From Clostridia bacterium (lineage in GTDB: Bacteria; Bacillota; Clostridia; Christensenellales; CAG-138), in contig DAOPJM010000009.1 in assembly GCA_035399665.1 (NCBI GenBank), positions 1-60,031 on the forward strand: DNA of 60,031 nt, read 5' to 3'. Of the stretch, positions 36,746-44,322 are shown piece after piece (the first letter of the stretch is position 1; every line of letters begins with the position of its first letter). The notes under the pieces were generated by a model. The model was not told the DNA's origin. It did not search any database and saw only the letters and a list, made by a program, of their open reading frames with translations. A program made the translations under genes and the position numbers.

Positions 36746-37873
36746 TTAAGCCTCAAAGAGGCTCAATTCAGTTTCAAGTGAGAAGAGCTGTATCAACTCG
36801 CCATTGATACGAACCTTGATGTTGGCGCCATATGGGAAGCCCATACGGTATTCCTGTGGCAGGTTGATAATCGGCAGGCGTAGAATAGCATCAGTGCCGA
36901 GAGCGTCGGTGTGCAGGTACAGCTCGCTGCCCATCATTTCGCATACATCTACGGTTGCGGGAATGGTGTTGGGCTGGTTGCCGACATGATCAATCTCGGT
37001 ATGCTCAGGGCGAATGCCCATAGTGACCTTCTGAGTGGTTACGCCGTTGTTTCGTAAAATCTGCTGTTTTGTCTCAGGCAGATCTATGCGATAGCCCGAA
37101 AGGTCAAGATAATAGCTTTTGCCGTCACAAATCAGATCCGCATCGAAGAAGTTCATTTGCGGTGTGCCAATGAAGCCCGCGACAAACTTGTTGTGAGGAC
37201 GATCGAAAACATCCGTAGGCGTGCCAATTTGCTGGACAAAACCGTCCTTCATGATGACGATACGATCACCTAAGGTCATGGCCTCTGTCTGGTCATGAGT
37301 AACATAGATGAAGGTGGTATCAAGGCGGTGTCTGAGCTTGATGATTTCGGCACGCATCTGATTACGAAGCTTAGCATCAAGGTTGGAGAGCGGTTCATCC
37401 ATGAGGAATACCTGAGGATCGCGAACGATAGCTCTTCCGATTGCGACACGTTGACGCTGACCGCCTGACAAAGCCTTGGGCTTCCTGTCAAGCAGCTCGG
37501 TGATGCCGAGTATTTCAGCCGCCGCGTTAACCTTTTCTTTGATTTCCGCCTTGGGAACCTTGCGCAGCTTAAGCGCGAAAGCCATATTCTCGAAAACAGT
37601 CATGTGAGGATAGAGCGCGTAGTTTTGAAAAACCATTGCGATATCTCTGTCCTTGGGGGGAACGTCATTAACGAGACGGTCACCGATGTACAGTTCGCCA
37701 TCGGTGATCTCCTCAAGGCCTGCCACCATACGAAGCGTAGTGGACTTACCGCAGCCTGAAGGACCTACCAGTACGATGAATTCCTTGTCCGCGATTTCAA
37801 GATTGAAATCGTGTACGGCTACGACGTCTTTGTCATAGACCTTCTTGAGATTCCTGAGTGATAAAGTTGCCAT
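36746..37873 (-). CDS. msmX: Multi-sugar ABC importer ATPase (MsmX/MalK/UgpC family)
   Basis: [44 protein letters not shown]-terminus. Confidence 0.93.
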
Positions 37874-38121: not shown

Positions 38122-38625
38122 TTAAAGAATGACTTTGAACAGATCGTAAAATTTCTTGTAGAACTCAAAATCGTTGTAATAATAATCATAATTCGCGCTT
38201 GAGAAAGCCATATAAAGGAGCACGAAGTATAAAAGGAGCATCAGAGTAAAGACAGCTCCGCATACCACACCCGCAATTGCCATTCCCCTTAATGGTCTGC
38301 CTTCGATTCTGTTTGTTTTTGCAAGACCGACAGCCGCAAGTATAAGCCCAATCGGAGCAAGCCAAAAAGTCATCGTCAGAACAAATCCGGTAATGATTAG
38401 GCCTCTCGGCGCGGATGCTTTAGAGTTTTGTGAAATAACCGCGTATGGCATATTCGGCTCCGCTCCGCTGTCAACATTCAACTGAACGGGAGCAACAACG
38501 CTTGGCGCGGTGTAAGATACTAAATTGGAGGAAGTCGCACGGGTTTCTGTCTCTACCGTTGCTCCGCAGGAGGGGCAGAATCTCATATTATCTTGGAGCT
38601 CACAGCCACAATTTCGACAGAACAT
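38122..38625 (-). CDS. Zinc-ribbon + DUF4190-like membrane protein
   Basis: MFCRNCG...FCPSCG, then TM segments with GLILAAVGL...G...AIAG motif; GGAGG RBS before ATG 38625. Confidence 0.75.
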   Translation of the reverse strand: MFCRNCGCELQDNMRFCPSCGATVETETRATSSNLVSYTAPSVVAPVQLNVDSGAEPNMPYAVISQNSKASAPRGLIITGFVLTMTFWLAPIGLILAAVGLAKTNRIEGRPLRGMAIAGVVCGAVFTLMLLLYFVLLYMAFSSANYDYYYNDFEFYKKFYDLFKVIL

Positions 38626-38661
38626 GGATTTTACCTCCGAAATGATGTTGATGTATGGCAT

Positions 38662-38764: not shown

Positions 38765-38857
38765 TGGCGGAGAAAGTGGGATTTGAACCCACGCACCGGT
38801 CAACCCAGTCTACTCCCTTAGCAGGGGAGCCCCTTATAGCCACTTGGGTATTTCTCC
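38765..38857 (-). tRNA. tRNA-Ser (GCT)
   Basis: Acceptor GGAGAAA/TTTCTCC, anticodon loop CTGCTAA, long variable arm, T-loop TTCAAAT, encoded CCA. Confidence 0.95.
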
Positions 38858-38870
38858 GTATTTAACGATT

Positions 38871-38958
38871 TGGCGGAGATGGTAGGATTTGAACCCACGG
38901 ATGTTTTCACATCAACGGTTTTCAAGACCGCCTCCTTAAACCCCTCGGACACATCTCC
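38871..38958 (-). tRNA. tRNA-Ser (TGA)
   Basis: Acceptor GGAGATG/CATCTCC, anticodon loop TTGAAAA region, long variable arm, T-loop TTCAAAT, encoded CCA. Confidence 0.95.
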
Positions 38959-39084: not shown

Positions 39085-39918
39085 ATGAGAGCAGACGGAA
39101 GAAAGGTCAAGAATATCCCGCCCATGTACGCCGTTGCGGCGCACATCATGGCGAAGCGTTCCGATGCCTGCAACTCGATTGAGCTGAACATACCGATCGA
39201 GCCGATGCAGACTTACATCAACGCAAAAAGAAAACAAGGGAACTATTTTAGCCACCTAACGGTGGTAGTGGCTTCGGTGCTGAGAACAGCAGCGGAATAC
39301 CCGTACCTGAATCGTTTCGTTGTCAACAAGCACATCTATGCCCGCAAGGAGTTTGCGGTCGGCATGGTGGTACTGAAGGCGGGGGATATCGACGGAACGA
39401 TGAACAAGGTATACTTCGACCCGGGTGACACAATTTATGATGTTCAGCGCAAGATGGACGCGTACATTGAGGAGAATCGTATCCAGGGCGATACCAATTC
39501 CACGGACGACTTAATCAACAAGCTGCTGAAGGTACCCGGGCTTTGCAACATAGGCGTGAAGCTCTTCAAGCTGTTGGACAGGTATGGTCTGTTGCCATAC
39601 GATATCATCAAGGCAAGTCCGTTTCACACAAGCTTTGTTGTGACTAACTTGGCGTCAATCCGCACAAACCACATTTTCCACCATGTGTATGACTTCGGTA
39701 CTACAAGTATGATTCTTTCTATGGGAAATCTCCGAGAGGTTCCCAAGCGTATTCATGGCGAAATAGTTCATGAGCGTTGCTTGCCCATAGGCTTAGTCAT
39801 GGATGAGCGCATATGCTCAGGAACATATTACGCATTGGCATTCCGCAAGATGCGCGAATACCTCTTGAATCCCGCTCTGCTTGAAACGCCTCCCGAAGTT
39901 ATAAATGTAGACGTGTAA
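39085..39918 (+). CDS. Stand-alone 2-oxo-acid dehydrogenase E2 catalytic-domain-like protein (CAT fold), no lipoyl domain
   Basis: SFVVTNLAS aligns with E2 TFTISNLG; LPIGLVMDERICSG aligns with LSLSFDHRxxDG; 277 aa. Confidence 0.7.
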   Translation: MRADGRKVKNIPPMYAVAAHIMAKRSDACNSIELNIPIEPMQTYINAKRKQGNYFSHLTVVVASVLRTAAEYPYLNRFVVNKHIYARKEFAVGMVVLKAGDIDGTMNKVYFDPGDTIYDVQRKMDAYIEENRIQGDTNSTDDLINKLLKVPGLCNIGVKLFKLLDRYGLLPYDIIKASPFHTSFVVTNLASIRTNHIFHHVYDFGTTSMILSMGNLREVPKRIHGEIVHERCLPIGLVMDERICSGTYYALAFRKMREYLLNPALLETPPEVINVDV

Positions 39919-39931
39919 ATCTAAAGATATG

Positions 39932-39965
39932 AAAAGTCCCGCCTTTTGATGGGCGGGACTTTTTG
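39932..39965. terminator. Bidirectional terminator between E2-like and zinc-ribbon genes
   Basis: 12-bp stem AAAAGTCCCGCC/GGCGGGACTTTT. Confidence 0.85.
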
Positions 39966-39972
39966 TTGAGAT

Positions 39973-40269
39973 TTAGTAGCTTCTCCTCGAGGGGCCATTC
40001 TGCCTGCGCTTTCTGTAGCAATCCTCGCAATAGATAGGCTTATCGTTTCTCGGCTGGAATGGGACCTTCGTGGGAGCACCACAGCCTGCGCAAACGGCAT
40101 CGAACATTTCGCGTTCGGGCGTGCGGGGCTTCTTGCGAAGTCTTCTGCATTCCGGGCAACGAAGCGGCTCATTCTGGAAGTTCTGTTGTGCGTAGAAGTC
40201 CTGTTCTCCTGCGGAGAATACGAACTGCTTGCCGCAATCCTTGCATACCAATACTTTGTCTTCGAACAT
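39973..40269 (-). CDS. Small double zinc-ribbon protein (zf-trcl-like + CxxC-x17-CxxC domain)
   Basis: CKDCG..FVFSAGEQ.FY......NEPLRCPEC, then CAGC-17 aa-CEDC, Arg-rich tail; 98 aa from ATG 40269. Confidence 0.85.
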   Translation of the reverse strand: MFEDKVLVCKDCGKQFVFSAGEQDFYAQQNFQNEPLRCPECRRLRKKPRTPEREMFDAVCAGCGAPTKVPFQPRNDKPIYCEDCYRKRRQNGPSRRSY

Positions 40270-40273
40270 TGAG

Positions 40274-40302
40274 ATTAGATTTCCCTTCATGGAATTAGAT
40301 TT
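40274..40302 (-). repeat. Direct repeat AAATCTAAT x2 (20-nt period) flanking the RBS of the zinc-ribbon gene
   Basis: Plus-strand ATTAGATTT at 40274-40282 and 40294-40302. Confidence 0.7.
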
Positions 40303-40313
40303 TTTGCACCCAC

Positions 40314-40529
40314 AACCGGCTGACCTGATCTTTGACCCCACACTCGCCGACAGGAGGGTTCGCTCATAAGCTTTCGCTCCCCACTACTGCCCCTCTCGAT
40401 GTTGCCATCGGTCGGACTTACATCTAAGCCGCACCATGCTCACGGAAAATTCTTCCGCTTATGTGGATCGTTTAGCCTGCGACTGGCATCGACTAATGTC
40501 CGTTAAGACATGCAACCACAGACCCGATT
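40314..40529 (-). ncRNA. raiA motif RNA
   Basis: Contains the blocks I recall from clostridial raiA RNAs: GTCGATGCCAGTCGCAGGC.AAACGATCCAC.TAAG, GAGCATGGTGCGGCTTAGA.GTAAGTCC, AGTAGTG, GCGAA.C, GGCGAGTGTGGGGTCAAAGA.CAGGTCA; ends can pair (AATCGG/CCGGTT). Boundaries approximate. Confidence 0.9.
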
Positions 40530-40543
40530 CCGGATACCACTAC

Positions 40544-40572
40544 ATTATAAACTACATAATCTCAAAAAGCAA
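40544..40572 (-). promoter_or_regulatory. sigmaA promoter of the raiA RNA
   Basis: TTGCTT-17-TATAAT, predicted +1 ~40537. Confidence 0.75.
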
Positions 40573-40616: not shown

Positions 40617-41189
40617 CTACAAGCTGTGCGGGTTTTGCGCGGTTTCATATTGCGCCCTCGGACCGCCCACATACTTCGGCCTTGTATAAGCAAGCACGAG
40701 GTTTGCGTCTCCAACCTTGCGCTGAGCGCAGTGCAGGGGAACCGCTACCGCCCTAAGGTGCATACCTATCAAAGTGTCGCCTACGTCCATCGCAAGAGTG
40801 GCTTGAGCCTTTAGGTCCTCTACCATAAGACCTTCGTCAGTTCTTGACAAAGCTTCTGTAACGCAAGCGCCGCCGGCGTGAAGCCAAGGCTTGACCCAAA
40901 CGTGCTGAAGGTTATACTGTTCCATGCACTTGTGGCTCACGCAAAGGCAGCGATTGATATGCTCGCAGCCTTGTACAGCCAAGAATATTCCATATTCTTC
41001 GACCACGGGAAGAACTCCGTCCAGTATGGCTTTGGCAACGTCCTCGCTTGAAGACGAGCCAATGCGCTTTCCCTGTACCTCGGAAGTCGAGCAGCCAAGA
41101 ACCATAAGCTCGCCCTTTTGAGGCTTTGCAACTTCAAGCAGCGCCCTAATCGCGCTCTCCGCTTGTTCCCTGATTAAACTTAGTTCCAT
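40617..41189 (-). CDS. ywlG: UPF0340/TIGR01440 family protein (YwlG-like)
   Basis: VLGCSTSEV.GKRIG, LAVQGCEHINR, HAGG, DVGDTLIGMHL, RPKYVGGPRA. Confidence 0.9.
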   Translation of the reverse strand: MELSLIREQAESAIRALLEVAKPQKGELMVLGCSTSEVQGKRIGSSSSEDVAKAILDGVLPVVEEYGIFLAVQGCEHINRCLCVSHKCMEQYNLQHVWVKPWLHAGGACVTEALSRTDEGLMVEDLKAQATLAMDVGDTLIGMHLRAVAVPLHCAQRKVGDANLVLAYTRPKYVGGPRAQYETAQNPHSL

Positions 41190-41199
41190 AAAACACCTC

Positions 41200-44100
41200 C
41201 TAAACGTTCTGACGCTTTTTGCGCATTATGACCACAATGACAGCGGCAACGACAATCGCCGCAGCAATCGCCATAATGATAATTATCCACGGTGAGAGAA
41301 CTGTCCCGCTGTCCTCGGCCGTTTCGGAAGCCGCAGTTGTATCTACCCTAAGCTCATGATAGGCGCCCTTTACAAGCACCATCGCGGAAATAGCGCTTAC
41401 GCTGACACTTCCCGAGACGCTTTCTATGGGCTTAGTACCGGCCTGAACGTCGTTAACATAAACATCCCACTCGCCTTCGGGCAGGGCTATTTCTATCGCC
41501 TCGCGATTGGCGTTGTACACAACGAACAGCGCTTCGGCCATCTCTCCGTTAGGGCTATTCTCTATCGTATACGCAACCACATTCGCAGGAAGATCGCTAA
41601 CGAAGCTTAGGTTGTCCGATATCTCCTTTGTAGTGGTGAGCCGCAGCGCGGAATGTTCCTTGCGGAATGCTATCAAGCCCTTGTAGTACTCGTATACGTC
41701 AGAGTACTGATCCAAGCGGTTCCACCTTAATGCATTGGTGTAGTCCGAAGACTTGTAGCTGTTTGAGTCGAAGCCTCCGTTCAATGCAGGTTTGCTCCTC
41801 AAAATCTCCTCGCCCGCTTGCATAAATGGTATGCCCTGACAAGTCTGAATGATAGCCGCGGCAAGCTTGTTCATGCGTATACGCGTTGCTTCATCGTCGT
41901 CTGTGTTCGATGATGCTATCTTATCCCACAACGAGAGATTGTCATGAGCCGAGCAGTAGCTTATGCATTGCAGGGGACTGCCCGCCCAATAGATGCTTGA
42001 ATAATTGACCTTGCTGTAATCCACCTGCGAATGCAAGGTTGCCGCGACTACGCCAAACTTTATAGTCTCCTCGAGACCCGCAGCGCCGGTGACAAAGCCC
42101 TTTTCCGTGGAGTTGAACACGCTTCCCTTGATTCCGTCGCGGATATCGTCCGAGAACGCGGCAATGCGGTTTAGAGCCATGGTGTTGGCTTTGAGCGCAC
42201 GTTCGCTTTCATCAAGCGGGGAAGATGAGGAGGTCCAGCCCTCGCCATAAACAAGTATTGTCGGGTCGATAACATCTAAAGCTTCACGCACAGCGTTCAT
42301 GGTTTCGATATCGTGTATACCCATTAAGTCAAAGCGGAAGCCGTCTATGTGATACTCAGTTGCCCAATAGACCACCGAATCGACGATGTACTTACGCACC
42401 ATGGCTCGTTCGGAGGCCGTCTCATTTCCGCAGCCCGAAGCGTTGGAATAAGCTCCGTCCACCATACGGTAGTAGTATTCAGGCACGGTAAGACTGAACC
42501 AAGAATCCTCGGTAGCAGAAGTGTGATTGTACACCACGTCCATGACCACACGAATTCCGTTCTCATGCAGGGCCTGAACCATGCGTTTGAACTCGTATAT
42601 GCGTACCTCGCCGGCATATGGGTTAGTGGAATACGAGCCCTCAGGTACATTATAGTTCTTAGGGTCGTAACCCCAGTTGAATTGCTCCTCATCAAGCTTA
42701 GTCTCGTCTATGGTCGCGAAGTCGAACACAGGCAAAAGATGAACATGGGTTATTCCAAGTTCCTTCAGGTGATCCACGCCGGTTGCCGTACCGCCGCTCG
42801 TAGTGGTTCCGCTTTCGGTAAACGCAAGGTACTTGCCCTTGTAGGTCATATTGCCGGCAGGATCGATTGAGAAATCACGAACGTGCAGCTCGTAAATCTC
42901 GGCGTCGGTGCTGTTGACAAATGTAGGTTTTTTATCCTTGTCCCATCCATCCGGATCGGTGGAGTTAAGGTCTATCACCATACCCCTGTCGCCGTTGATG
43001 CCCACAGCCTTTGCGTAGACGTCAACGGTTTCATTTGTCTTGCCGTTTAACGTTACAAGATAGGTATAGTAAGTTCCGCCAAGATTGCCGTCATAGATCA
43101 AAGCCCAAGTTCCGTTGTCGGACTTTTCCATGGGAATGGTCTCGATTAGGTTATCACCGTCGCCGTTCTCATAAAGCGCGACATTGACTGTTGTGGCGGT
43201 AGGTGCCCAAACTCTAAAGCAGGTGTTGTCCTTAAGTATGACTGCTCCAAGATCATTACCTAAATAGCTGTATGCGGCTTCGAACTCATCCGTATCGAAC
43301 AGCTCGGACATTGAAACCGATATCTCGCCATAGACTGCGTTTTGCAGCGTATAGCCTTTGCCCATGTCTATGCCGTTCTCAAGGGTTGCTGTAATAGCGG
43401 CGGAGTTGTCTGCGGCTTGCTTTATGGTTTTGATCTCTGTCACGCTGCCATTGTCCGCGCTTAATAGGAATTCATCTGCTTTGACGTCATCCGGCGCGAC
43501 GGTCAAGACAAAGCTCACGGTGTTGAGGTCAATGAACTTCGCTGAGAGAAACTTGGGAGTGAGGTCAACGTCCTCCAAAGCGTAGTAAACGTTGCTGTCA
43601 CCCGTCACCAGCCAAATGTTGAGGGTATCGTCAACCGCATACTCCACTGACATAAACCTGTCGTCCGCAACATCCTTCTGCTCCCATTCGTTAAGGCGGA
43701 CGATGAAGCCCAAGCTTTCGACCCCCGTCATATCCTCTATACCGAGGCTGATTACCGCTCCGAAATCATCATATGAGCTTATGCCATAAGCCGCCCCGTC
43801 CTGTCCTTCCTTCCACAGCCAAAGGTTCCAGCCATCGTAATTGCCGTCATAGCGGCGATAGTGGACATTGACCTTGAACGCGCCCTCAATGTTGGCGGAT
43901 TCCATATTTTCCTGTTGAACGGCTTCATAGTCGTAAGGCGTACACCCTTCGGGAGTTGTATAAGCGAACTCAGTAACACCGCTGTAAATCCATATCTCGG
44001 TTCGTTCGCTCGTTAAGCTGATGAACCTGTCCTGCTCGACGTCCTTCTTCTCCCAATCGTTGAGCCTAACTATGACGCCAACCTTACTCACGGAAGTATC

Positions 44101-44322
44101 ACAGGTGTATACGGCGACTTTTCCGAAGTCGTCATCGTCGGAGAAGCTTATCTGCTTACCTGATGCGCCGTCGTTCCAGAGCCAGAGATTCCAGCCGGTA
44201 TAATCAGCGTCGTCGCGGTGATAGTGAACTATAATGAGATTTTTGTTATCCGCAAATGATACCGCCGTGAAAAGCGGTACCATAAGCAGAACAACGAGTA
44301 TAGCGGCGATGAAACGTTTCAT
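41200..44322 (-). CDS. pulA: Surface-anchored type I pullulanase (2x CBM41, CBM48, GH13)
   Basis: Signal peptide; two VHY.R.D..Y.GWNLWLW repeats; FRVWAPTA; NWGYDP, DVVYNH, GFRFDLMG, YGEGW, HDN; C-terminal TM + RKKR. Confidence 0.93.
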   Translation of the reverse strand: MKRFIAAILVVLLMVPLFTAVSFADNKNLIIVHYHRDDADYTGWNLWLWNDGASGKQISFSDDDDFGKVAVYTCDTSVSKVGVIVRLNDWEKKDVEQDRFISLTSERTEIWIYSGVTEFAYTTPEGCTPYDYEAVQQENMESANIEGAFKVNVHYRRYDGNYDGWNLWLWKEGQDGAAYGISSYDDFGAVISLGIEDMTGVESLGFIVRLNEWEQKDVADDRFMSVEYAVDDTLNIWLVTGDSNVYYALEDVDLTPKFLSAKFIDLNTVSFVLTVAPDDVKADEFLLSADNGSVTEIKTIKQAADNSAAITATLENGIDMGKGYTLQNAVYGEISVSMSELFDTDEFEAAYSYLGNDLGAVILKDNTCFRVWAPTATTVNVALYENGDGDNLIETIPMEKSDNGTWALIYDGNLGGTYYTYLVTLNGKTNETVDVYAKAVGINGDRGMVIDLNSTDPDGWDKDKKPTFVNSTDAEIYELHVRDFSIDPAGNMTYKGKYLAFTESGTTTSGGTATGVDHLKELGITHVHLLPVFDFATIDETKLDEEQFNWGYDPKNYNVPEGSYSTNPYAGEVRIYEFKRMVQALHENGIRVVMDVVYNHTSATEDSWFSLTVPEYYYRMVDGAYSNASGCGNETASERAMVRKYIVDSVVYWATEYHIDGFRFDLMGIHDIETMNAVREALDVIDPTILVYGEGWTSSSSPLDESERALKANTMALNRIAAFSDDIRDGIKGSVFNSTEKGFVTGAAGLEETIKFGVVAATLHSQVDYSKVNYSSIYWAGSPLQCISYCSAHDNLSLWDKIASSNTDDDEATRIRMNKLAAAIIQTCQGIPFMQAGEEILRSKPALNGGFDSNSYKSSDYTNALRWNRLDQYSDVYEYYKGLIAFRKEHSALRLTTTKEISDNLSFVSDLPANVVAYTIENSPNGEMAEALFVVYNANREAIEIALPEGEWDVYVNDVQAGTKPIESVSGSVSVSAISAMVLVKGAYHELRVDTTAASETAEDSGTVLSPWIIIIMAIAAAIVVAAVIVVIMRKKRQNV

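Follow-up and report, generated by a model that had tools for sequence, protein, structure and literature searches.

This study concerns a short transcription unit within a stretch of DNA of 60,031 nucleotides (nt) from a Clostridia bacterium of the order Christensenellales (contig DAOPJM010000009.1 of assembly GCA_035399665.1; the whole stretch is referred to as the window). The unit consists of a raiA motif RNA, which also bears the name ModT, and of the gene for a small zinc protein that follows it, and the two are co-transcribed on one abundant message. Within this order of the Clostridia, and likewise in several families elsewhere in the phylum, such an RNA-plus-mRNA operon is where raiA is normally located. 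An earlier note on the same DNA had described this succession of elements and proposed that RNA and protein form a dedicated module. The strand assumed there has to be corrected because all elements sit on the minus strand.

The RNA is of full length (222 nt; 40311..40532) and matches Rfam family RF03072 with 186.8 bits, compared to a gathering score of 101.3 (E = 1e-47), over the complete model (positions 1-209 of 209), so that its recognition as raiA in the earlier note stands. It carries a 16-nt insertion after the first helices, all consensus helices are present, and an RF03072 search of the 2.09-Mb genome found it in a single copy. Upstream of it lies a predicted sigma-70-type promoter (40544..40572) with a -35 box TTGCTT (40572-40567), a 17-nt spacer and a -10 box TATAAT (40549-40544); the assignment is a consensus match only, and 11 nt separate the end of the -10 box from the 5' end of raiA. 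An automated promoter scan had chosen a weaker site; the TTGCTT-17-TATAAT arrangement was taken from the sequence and scored across loci.

The spacer that follows raiA measures 41 nt (40270..40310) and not 44 nt as first reported; it is A/U-rich and then contains the Shine-Dalgarno sequence AAGGGA (40287-40282). Promoter and terminator scans detected neither kind of signal within it, and raiA reads into the next open reading frame (ORF) without an intervening terminator, as had been claimed. This ORF (39973..40269) encodes a basic protein of 98 amino acids with two zinc modules that are recognized by Pfam and NCBIfam models. An in-frame ATG further upstream (40290) is not the start because homologues begin at the same methionine of an MFEDK or MYEDK motif. 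The unit ends at an intrinsic terminator (39932..39963) with a 12-bp stem including seven G-C pairs and a U-rich tail. It corresponds to the strong terminator of the earlier note, is the sole terminator-like site in the region and, being placed between convergent genes, probably works in both directions. Upstream of the unit is a DUF436 gene (40617-41189, minus strand) and downstream a convergent acyltransferase-like gene (39085-39918, plus strand); thus neither hpf nor comFC adjoins raiA at this locus, again in agreement with the earlier description.

Conservation of the pairing was assessed by RF03072 and protein-domain searches of the same genome samples and comparison of the resulting coordinates. 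The samples comprised 151 genomes from 50 genera for the family, 151 genomes from 42 families for the order, and 201 genomes for the phylum. At the family level, raiA was present in 128 genomes, and in 123 of them (96%) a zf_Tbcl gene came next on the same strand, its domain starting 34-61 nt after the end of raiA; three of the five exceptions are explained by contig breaks. The order sample contained 62 raiA loci in 20 families, 48 of which were linked to the gene, with 17 families showing complete and three families no linkage. In one of the latter (family f5) a classical hpf gene lies 235-264 nt downstream of raiA. Only 24 of the 201 genomes of the phylum sample harbor raiA. Yet 14 of 23 raiA loci outside the order, belonging to six further families, have the same gene 31-40 nt downstream, and the remainder are followed by hpf or by unrelated genes. 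Taking family f5 of the order together with families f45, f55 and f116, hpf lies downstream of raiA at a distance of 126-401 nt. Tabulated in this way, the association is systematic rather than sporadic, and within the order the pair of raiA and gene is inherited or lost as a unit. Linked loci in named genomes, retrieved by a protein-anchored search, belong to Acutalibacteraceae, Oscillospiraceae, Christensenellales and unclassified metagenome-assembled genomes of Clostridia. A conserved neighbor beyond the zinc-protein gene (such as rpmG-secE-nusG after sigH) was sought and not found. Two variations on the arrangement were encountered. Genome G219 has raiA followed in tandem by a gene for a 65-amino-acid single-domain zinc-finger protein and by the two-domain gene (L018; C8:14520-16040), and genome G252 has two raiA copies (C41:327-531 and C18:48671-48920) with a zinc-protein gene behind each.

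Thirty-five linked loci, which represent no fewer than 24 families, served to examine the layout of the unit. Everywhere the spacer is short (27-42 nt), A/U-rich and of unconserved sequence, and a strong Shine-Dalgarno sequence (GAGGG or GGAGG) precedes the ATG by 5-12 nt. Just upstream of raiA, 30 of the 35 loci have a promoter that resembles TTGCTT-17-TATAAT with 9 or more of 12 matches, mostly with 10-15 nt between the end of the -10 box and the RNA, and a terminator is found no more than 120 nt past the stop codon in 32. By contrast, a comparable promoter in the last 40 nt of raiA or in the spacer is missing from all loci, as is a hairpin resembling a terminator between RNA and ORF. It follows that the ORF relies on the raiA promoter, in agreement with the co-transcription assumed in the earlier note. 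Among 23 unlinked raiA loci a terminator follows the RNA in only five, so that raiA may generally read into whichever gene comes next. Partition functions computed with ViennaRNA for raiA, spacer and 33 nt of the ORF gave a median unpaired probability of 0.46 for the Shine-Dalgarno sequence in the 35 loci, pseudoknots being ignored.

Expression was evaluated with assembled Logan contigs of public metatranscriptomes from wastewater and digester samples. These contigs carry no strand information and a flat rather than local depth, and they are informative about continuity and abundance but not about transcript ends. In cDNA run X28 one unitig (40231-40520) runs through raiA and the spacer and 38 nt into the ORF at a word depth of 537, and a second one covers the ORF at a depth of 280; values for the DUF436 gene and the convergent gene are between 0 and 10. 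Run X29 yielded a single error-free contig from 40000 to 40479 (depth 305), run X30 a contig from 40023 to 40442, and run X35, which stems from a separate study, one from 40115 to 40439, and in all three the depth of the flanks was zero. RNA and gene are thus joined on one abundant transcript in four metatranscriptomes, as anticipated in the earlier note. Three additional runs labeled 'metatranscriptomic WGS' (X25-X27) were excluded because their flat depth of 6-10 over all genes is DNA-like. RNA-seq data of an isolate were also sought for a relative with a complete genome (G011, locus L020), but the matches were confined to conserved words of raiA and came from unrelated metatranscriptomes.

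Operon anatomy, conservation, co-transcription and phyletic pattern are observations. On balance we consider it probable that they reflect a conserved RNA-plus-mRNA operon that couples the expression of raiA and the zinc protein. Given that the ORF lacks a promoter of its own and continues raiA in the 3' direction, raiA is the 5' domain of an mRNA or is cut from one. The ORF would be transcribed from the raiA promoter and translated from its own strong ribosome-binding site, and this coupling would place a small, widespread and highly conserved protein of predicted nucleic-acid-binding type under the control of the strong raiA promoter. A role of the coupling in stabilization or co-expression, as well as its physiological theme, is the part of this explanation that we infer. 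In Firmicutes, a structured 5' domain combined with a strong Shine-Dalgarno sequence shields mRNAs from 5'-end-dependent decay, and going by this general layout the very stable raiA domain might protect the message. RNA and protein would be made together, probably within the same transition-phase or stationary-phase program. In other bacteria, raiA/ModT is very abundant, stable and trans-acting, with effects on the transition phase and on sporulation (PMC10861870, PMC11706538). Depending on the lineage, the gene shares a transcript with raiA/ModT or, as described below, with sigH, both of which are tied to stationary-phase transition and sporulation, and this suggests that the zinc protein is part of that program.

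The zinc protein itself offers a first view on what may be coupled to raiA. Residues 3-47 match zf_Tbcl (PF13451; CxxC-x25-CxxC) with 76.9 bits (cut-off 24), and residues 53-89 match zf_Tbcl_2 (PF23477; CxxC-x17-CxxC) with 69.5 bits (cut-off 27). The second module is also recognized by the equivalent NCBIfam model TIGR04272 (CxxC-x17-CxxC; 66.8 bits, cut-off 36), and genome scans place the two domains at 40126-40263 and 40003-40113, respectively. The two Cys4 modules of the earlier note are thereby confirmed, with all eight cysteines present. In an alignment of 30 orthologues from different families the columns average 66% identity and 28 of them are invariant, among these C9, C12, C38, C41, C60, C63, C81 and C84. 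The protein has a net charge of about +7. The arginine-rich tail noticed earlier is present in the protein of the locus (YRKRRQNGPSRRSY) but is not conserved, since most homologues are shorter by 6-9 residues at this end. An AlphaFold2 model (mean predicted local distance difference test score 86.7, predicted template modeling score 0.45) consists of two beta-hairpin-plus-helix zinc modules separated by a basic linker. A sequence search of the PDB returned only spurious matches to C2H2 zinc-finger repeats (best E 3e-4) and none over a full domain, and a Foldseek comparison of the model with the PDB gave nothing below E = 0.1, so that the fold provides no functional clue. Experimental data were found solely for small single-domain CxxC-x17-CxxC proteins of Methanosarcina mazei, which are abundant and were shown to bind zinc by inductively coupled plasma mass spectrometry (PMC12704099). 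They share the CxxC-x17-CxxC module with the zinc protein but differ in having one domain, and no link to RNA has been described for them. In families without the two-domain protein we observed a separate single-domain zf_Tbcl paralogue of 56-61 amino acids (MADKTL.C.DCG..F.FTEGEQ.F..EKGF.N.P.RC..CR.A.K...), whose genes (L180-L182, L193, L195, L196, L198 and L199) have leaders of their own of about 100 nt.

The reading that survives best next to coupled expression is a dedicated ribonucleoprotein, as proposed in the earlier note, in which the zinc protein binds raiA as a chaperone, stabilizer or functional subunit, either co-transcriptionally or after its release, and in which the operon serves to co-localize both molecules. 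Tight and orientation-fixed linkage across at least 24 families speaks for this idea, and so does the nature of the protein, whose basic character, two zinc knuckle or ribbon modules and high mean identity suggest a conserved macromolecular partner. It is also compatible with the literature, as raiA of C. difficile sediments as a ribonucleoprotein and published synteny has not provided a strong partner (PMC12968392, PMC10861870). Because PF13451 alone also detects the single-domain paralogue and hence overstates the distribution, PF23477 was chosen as the marker of the two-domain protein for the counts of its presence. Within the order, the protein occurs in 57 of 61 raiA-positive genomes compared to 10 of 90 raiA-negative ones; at the family level both are found in 19, raiA without the protein in one, the protein without raiA in three, and none of the two in about 19. 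This co-occurrence likewise fits a ribonucleoprotein, but co-loss of this kind is also expected from physical linkage in one operon alone. Of the 201 genomes sampled from the phylum, 123 encode the two-domain protein, namely 18 of the 24 with raiA and 105 of the 177 without it. Given that it is kept in so many raiA-less genomes and lacking in six raiA genomes, neither molecule needs the other. In family f5 of the order, where raiA resides next to hpf, solely the single-domain paralogue is present. Comparison of proteins from linked and unlinked loci revealed no raiA-specific residues, the invariant core being the same in all contexts, and elsewhere the orthologue is encoded behind a tRNA-like RNA or sigH. 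The zinc protein is therefore not a dedicated obligate subunit of raiA, and we regard the proposal of a dedicated ribonucleoprotein as rather unlikely.

The alternative contexts of the orthologue became apparent from the 80 best homologues in named genomes, which were retrieved by a protein-anchored search. In 20 of these loci the gene is preceded by a full raiA whose end lies about 40 nt from the ATG, and in one by a shortened form of about 110 nt, here called mini-raiA. The most frequent element, found in 29 loci including those of Faecalibacterium and Gemmiger, is a tRNA-like cloverleaf of about 70 nt that ends 25-36 nt before the ATG and has the consensus ATGCCC..GTAGCTTAA..AGAGCGTTG..CAAAGGTGTCGGT..AATCCGTCC..GGGCAA (L069, L078, L079, L082, L088, L089, L091, L092, L095, L096, L098, L100, L105, L112, L114-L116, L118, L121, L122, L125, L128-L130, L133, L135, L136 and L139; about positions 1095-1175 in each). 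The Rfam tRNA model detects three of the 29 elements with 34-38 bits only, and ARAGORN calls none of them as a tRNA. A covariance model built from these leaders finds all 29 plus, weakly, two real tRNAs. After realignment 88% of the cells are paired, as opposed to 24-52% when the partners are slid against each other, and double changes occur in 12 of 17 pairs, a result that none of 500 shuffles equaled, so that four helices are supported. RNAalifold applied to a MAFFT alignment had returned a D-arm-like helix only and was replaced by a hand-drawn cloverleaf, the covariance model and realignment. No locus has a terminator between the tRNA-like element and the ORF, whereas 27 of the 29 have one after the ORF. 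We know of no described family to which this element belongs.

The mini-raiA elements are 110-113 nt long and score 49-57 bits, which is below the gathering score (L057-L059 in genomes G337, G459 and G492, about positions 401-517 as oriented; L068:1051-1160). They retain P1 and the GGUCUGUGGUUGAAAGUCGA segment on the 5' side, together with a P3 stub and, on the 3' side, ACCAGGUCAGC; they are preceded by the same TTGCTT-17-TATAAT promoter and have the zinc-protein gene 37-40 nt downstream. In G337, G459 and G492 the mini-raiA is the sole raiA-like sequence of the genome. The leader of L142 ends in AACCAGGTCGGCTAAGCA and may represent a further reduced form of raiA. In about 13 of the 80 loci the gene is located 33-56 nt behind a sigma-factor gene that has its best match to SigH, one of the matches exceeding the curated cut-off. 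This direct succession of a SigH-type sporulation sigma gene and the zinc-protein gene, without a structured leader, was observed in genomes of the Oscillospiraceae/Oscillibacter type (L072, L074, L075, L094, L101, L103, L106, L109-L111 and L134; the sigma ORF ends 33-69 nt before position 1201). Forty raiA-less loci from further families of the phylum mostly carry different leaders of 80-120 nt, which look structured, in front of the gene. Seven leaders of raiA-less orthologues in several other families (L150, L153, L158, L165, L168, L173 and L176) end with GGGCAA(T/A)AAA just before the Shine-Dalgarno sequence and in this resemble the tRNA-like element at its 3' end. These leaders hold internal stems such as CTTCTC/GAGAAG and may form another leader class.

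With these leaders in mind it is tempting to speculate that the two-domain zf_Tbcl protein is the missing partner of raiA/ModT after all, loading onto the RNA as both leave one transcript, and that it generally recognizes compact tRNA-like or raiA-like folds. Lineages that have raiA but not the protein would then use another partner, for instance KhpA/KhpB. Recognition of a fold would explain why the gene became fused behind raiA, mini-raiA or a tRNA-like RNA in different Clostridia; we nevertheless regard this extension as a speculation that is rather unlikely.

Less probable still is that the protein binds structured RNAs generally and that the RNA in front of its gene serves as an operator for its own synthesis, by mimicry as in the leaders of ribosomal-protein genes and thrS. 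Most lineages indeed possess a long, lineage-specific structured leader before a strong Shine-Dalgarno sequence, be it raiA, mini-raiA, the covarying tRNA-like cloverleaf or one of the 80-120-nt leaders found elsewhere. The mini-raiA, in which only the P1-proximal core has been kept and which is the only raiA-like sequence of its genome, likewise conforms to such a model. However, no motif common to the different leaders was found, and the sigH-linked genes have just an unstructured spacer of 33-56 nt.

An action of raiA in cis had also been considered in the earlier note, but a function as a riboswitch-like element through which a ligand controls transcription or translation of the zinc-protein gene is very improbable. 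Support for it comes from position, since in all 35 linked loci raiA lies on the same strand 27-42 nt before the ATG with no promoter in between. Distance and variable orientation have been used in published work to argue against a link of raiA to its downstream gene (PMC5737381, PMC10861870), and the fixed position removes this main argument against an action in cis. Moreover, Rfam lists RF03072 under the type 'Cis-reg; riboswitch'. By contrast, a terminator/antiterminator platform is present in none of the 35 loci, the A/U-rich spacers are unconserved, and the ORF reaches about half the depth of raiA in the RNA data, as is expected for constitutive read-through. In addition, trans action of raiA/ModT has been described for both C. 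acetobutylicum and C. difficile, published in vitro tests found no binding of a small molecule (PMC10861870, PMC11706538, PMC5737381), and elsewhere raiA is 126-401 nt away from hpf. A riboswitch role is thus unlikely because an expression platform of the terminator type is missing throughout and because raiA works in trans in other bacteria. That RNA and gene are merely independent neighbors, with the ORF being expressed from a weak start of its own or by accidental read-through of no selective value, would suit the scarcity of terminators behind unlinked raiA but is scarcely credible in view of the fixed spacing and strand, the linkage of 96% in the family and its recurrence in at least 24 families, the lack of conservation of the genes on the outer sides, and the absence of internal promoters from all 35 loci.

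Coupled expression of raiA and the zinc protein therefore remains the explanation that we favor, and several points have to be weighed against it. The contigs are compatible with processing between RNA and ORF or with a weak internal start, either of which may occur. The strong co-occurrence of raiA and protein within the order is also what a functional partnership predicts. Finally, the tRNA-like leader is not accounted for by a transition-phase theme, and the gene of the sigH lineages has no structured leader, which shows that a 5' structure is not universally required.

Several other features of the window surround the unit. Two tRNA genes with a long variable arm (38768-38857 and 38874-38958, minus strand; Rfam scores of 56.4 and 53.1 bits) share the strand of the zinc-protein gene and are located about 1 kb downstream of it, past the convergent gene. 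An ORF at 38122-38661 (minus strand) encodes a 179-amino-acid protein that combines a zinc ribbon (PF13240) at its N-terminus with a DUF4190 membrane domain and is unrelated to the zf_Tbcl protein. A malK-I RNA motif (RF03069; 37868-38048, minus strand; 138.6 bits, gathering score 60.3) is placed directly 5' of a gene for a MalK-type ABC ATPase (36746-37873, minus strand). On the other side, a pullulanase-type gene extends from 41200 to 44322.

With more than 2,500 species, raiA/ModT is among the most widespread and abundant bacterial non-coding RNAs of unknown biochemical function, and its knock-out disturbs stationary-phase transition, sporulation and aggregation. Our results show that raiA can form part of an mRNA and that, in a largely uncultured branch of the Clostridia that is probably under-sampled by RefSeq-type genome sets, it nearly always forms the 5' part of an mRNA that encodes one particular zinc protein of extremely high conservation. 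The pairing thus offers a defined protein candidate for binding to raiA, for a joint function or for co-regulation. The occurrence of the gene behind raiA, a tRNA-like RNA or sigH provides a second lead, and points to a small protein linked to the expression of stable RNAs or to that of the transition phase. Should the coupling amount to promoter sharing only, it would be a useful rule for annotation rather than a mechanism.

Previous surveys of the genomic context of raiA arrived at a different picture. Weinberg 2017 reported comFC as lying upstream of the RNA, with RaiA and PBP domains encoded on its downstream side (PMC5737381), and Soares 2024 analyzed synteny over 887 annotated genomes via RefSeq accessions and obtained no strong candidate for a protein partner (PMC10861870). 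A zinc-ribbon neighbor is mentioned neither in the former nor in the main text of the latter, nor in the ModT paper (Lence 2024, PMC11706538) or the cryo-EM paper (He 2026, PMC12968392). Full-text searches with the domain names and with raiA plus zinc ribbon retrieved nothing relevant on the pairing or on a two-domain orthologue behind structured RNAs. The operon hence combines a known RNA family with a known domain family in an arrangement that is undescribed in the literature searched.

Compared to known systems, the RNA of the locus is a typical raiA/ModT in that it is full-length, has a SigA-type promoter directly upstream, is present in a single copy and is very abundant in RNA data. It differs in its surroundings. 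Published raiA/ModT has comFC upstream in 74% and raiA/hpf downstream in 66% of the cases, often hundreds of nucleotides away and in variable orientation, and forms an independent transcript. Here neither gene is adjacent and the zinc-protein ORF begins 41 nt further on within the same transcript, comFC and hpf being a typical rather than a family-defining context. The OLE RNA with its proteins OapA, OapB and OapC represents another large, structured and abundant non-coding RNA of the Firmicutes with an adjacent, co-oriented gene for a small protein, in which adjacency was the lead to the partner. OLE and oapA co-occur essentially one-to-one, whereas raiA and the zinc protein are each widespread without the other, and an obligate ribonucleoprotein is accordingly not indicated. 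Co-transcripts of stable RNAs and mRNAs as well as 5' stabilizers are exemplified by thrU-tyrU-glyT-thrT-tufB of E. coli and by the aprE leader of B. subtilis and the STAB-SD element of cryIIIA, respectively. What sets the raiA operon apart from these examples is that its 5' element, to which we would attribute a stabilizing effect by analogy, is a complex trans-acting non-coding RNA with a physiological role of its own. Like tufB in the thrU-tyrU-glyT-thrT-tufB operon, however, the zinc-protein gene forms the 3' part of a transcript that starts at the promoter of a stable RNA.

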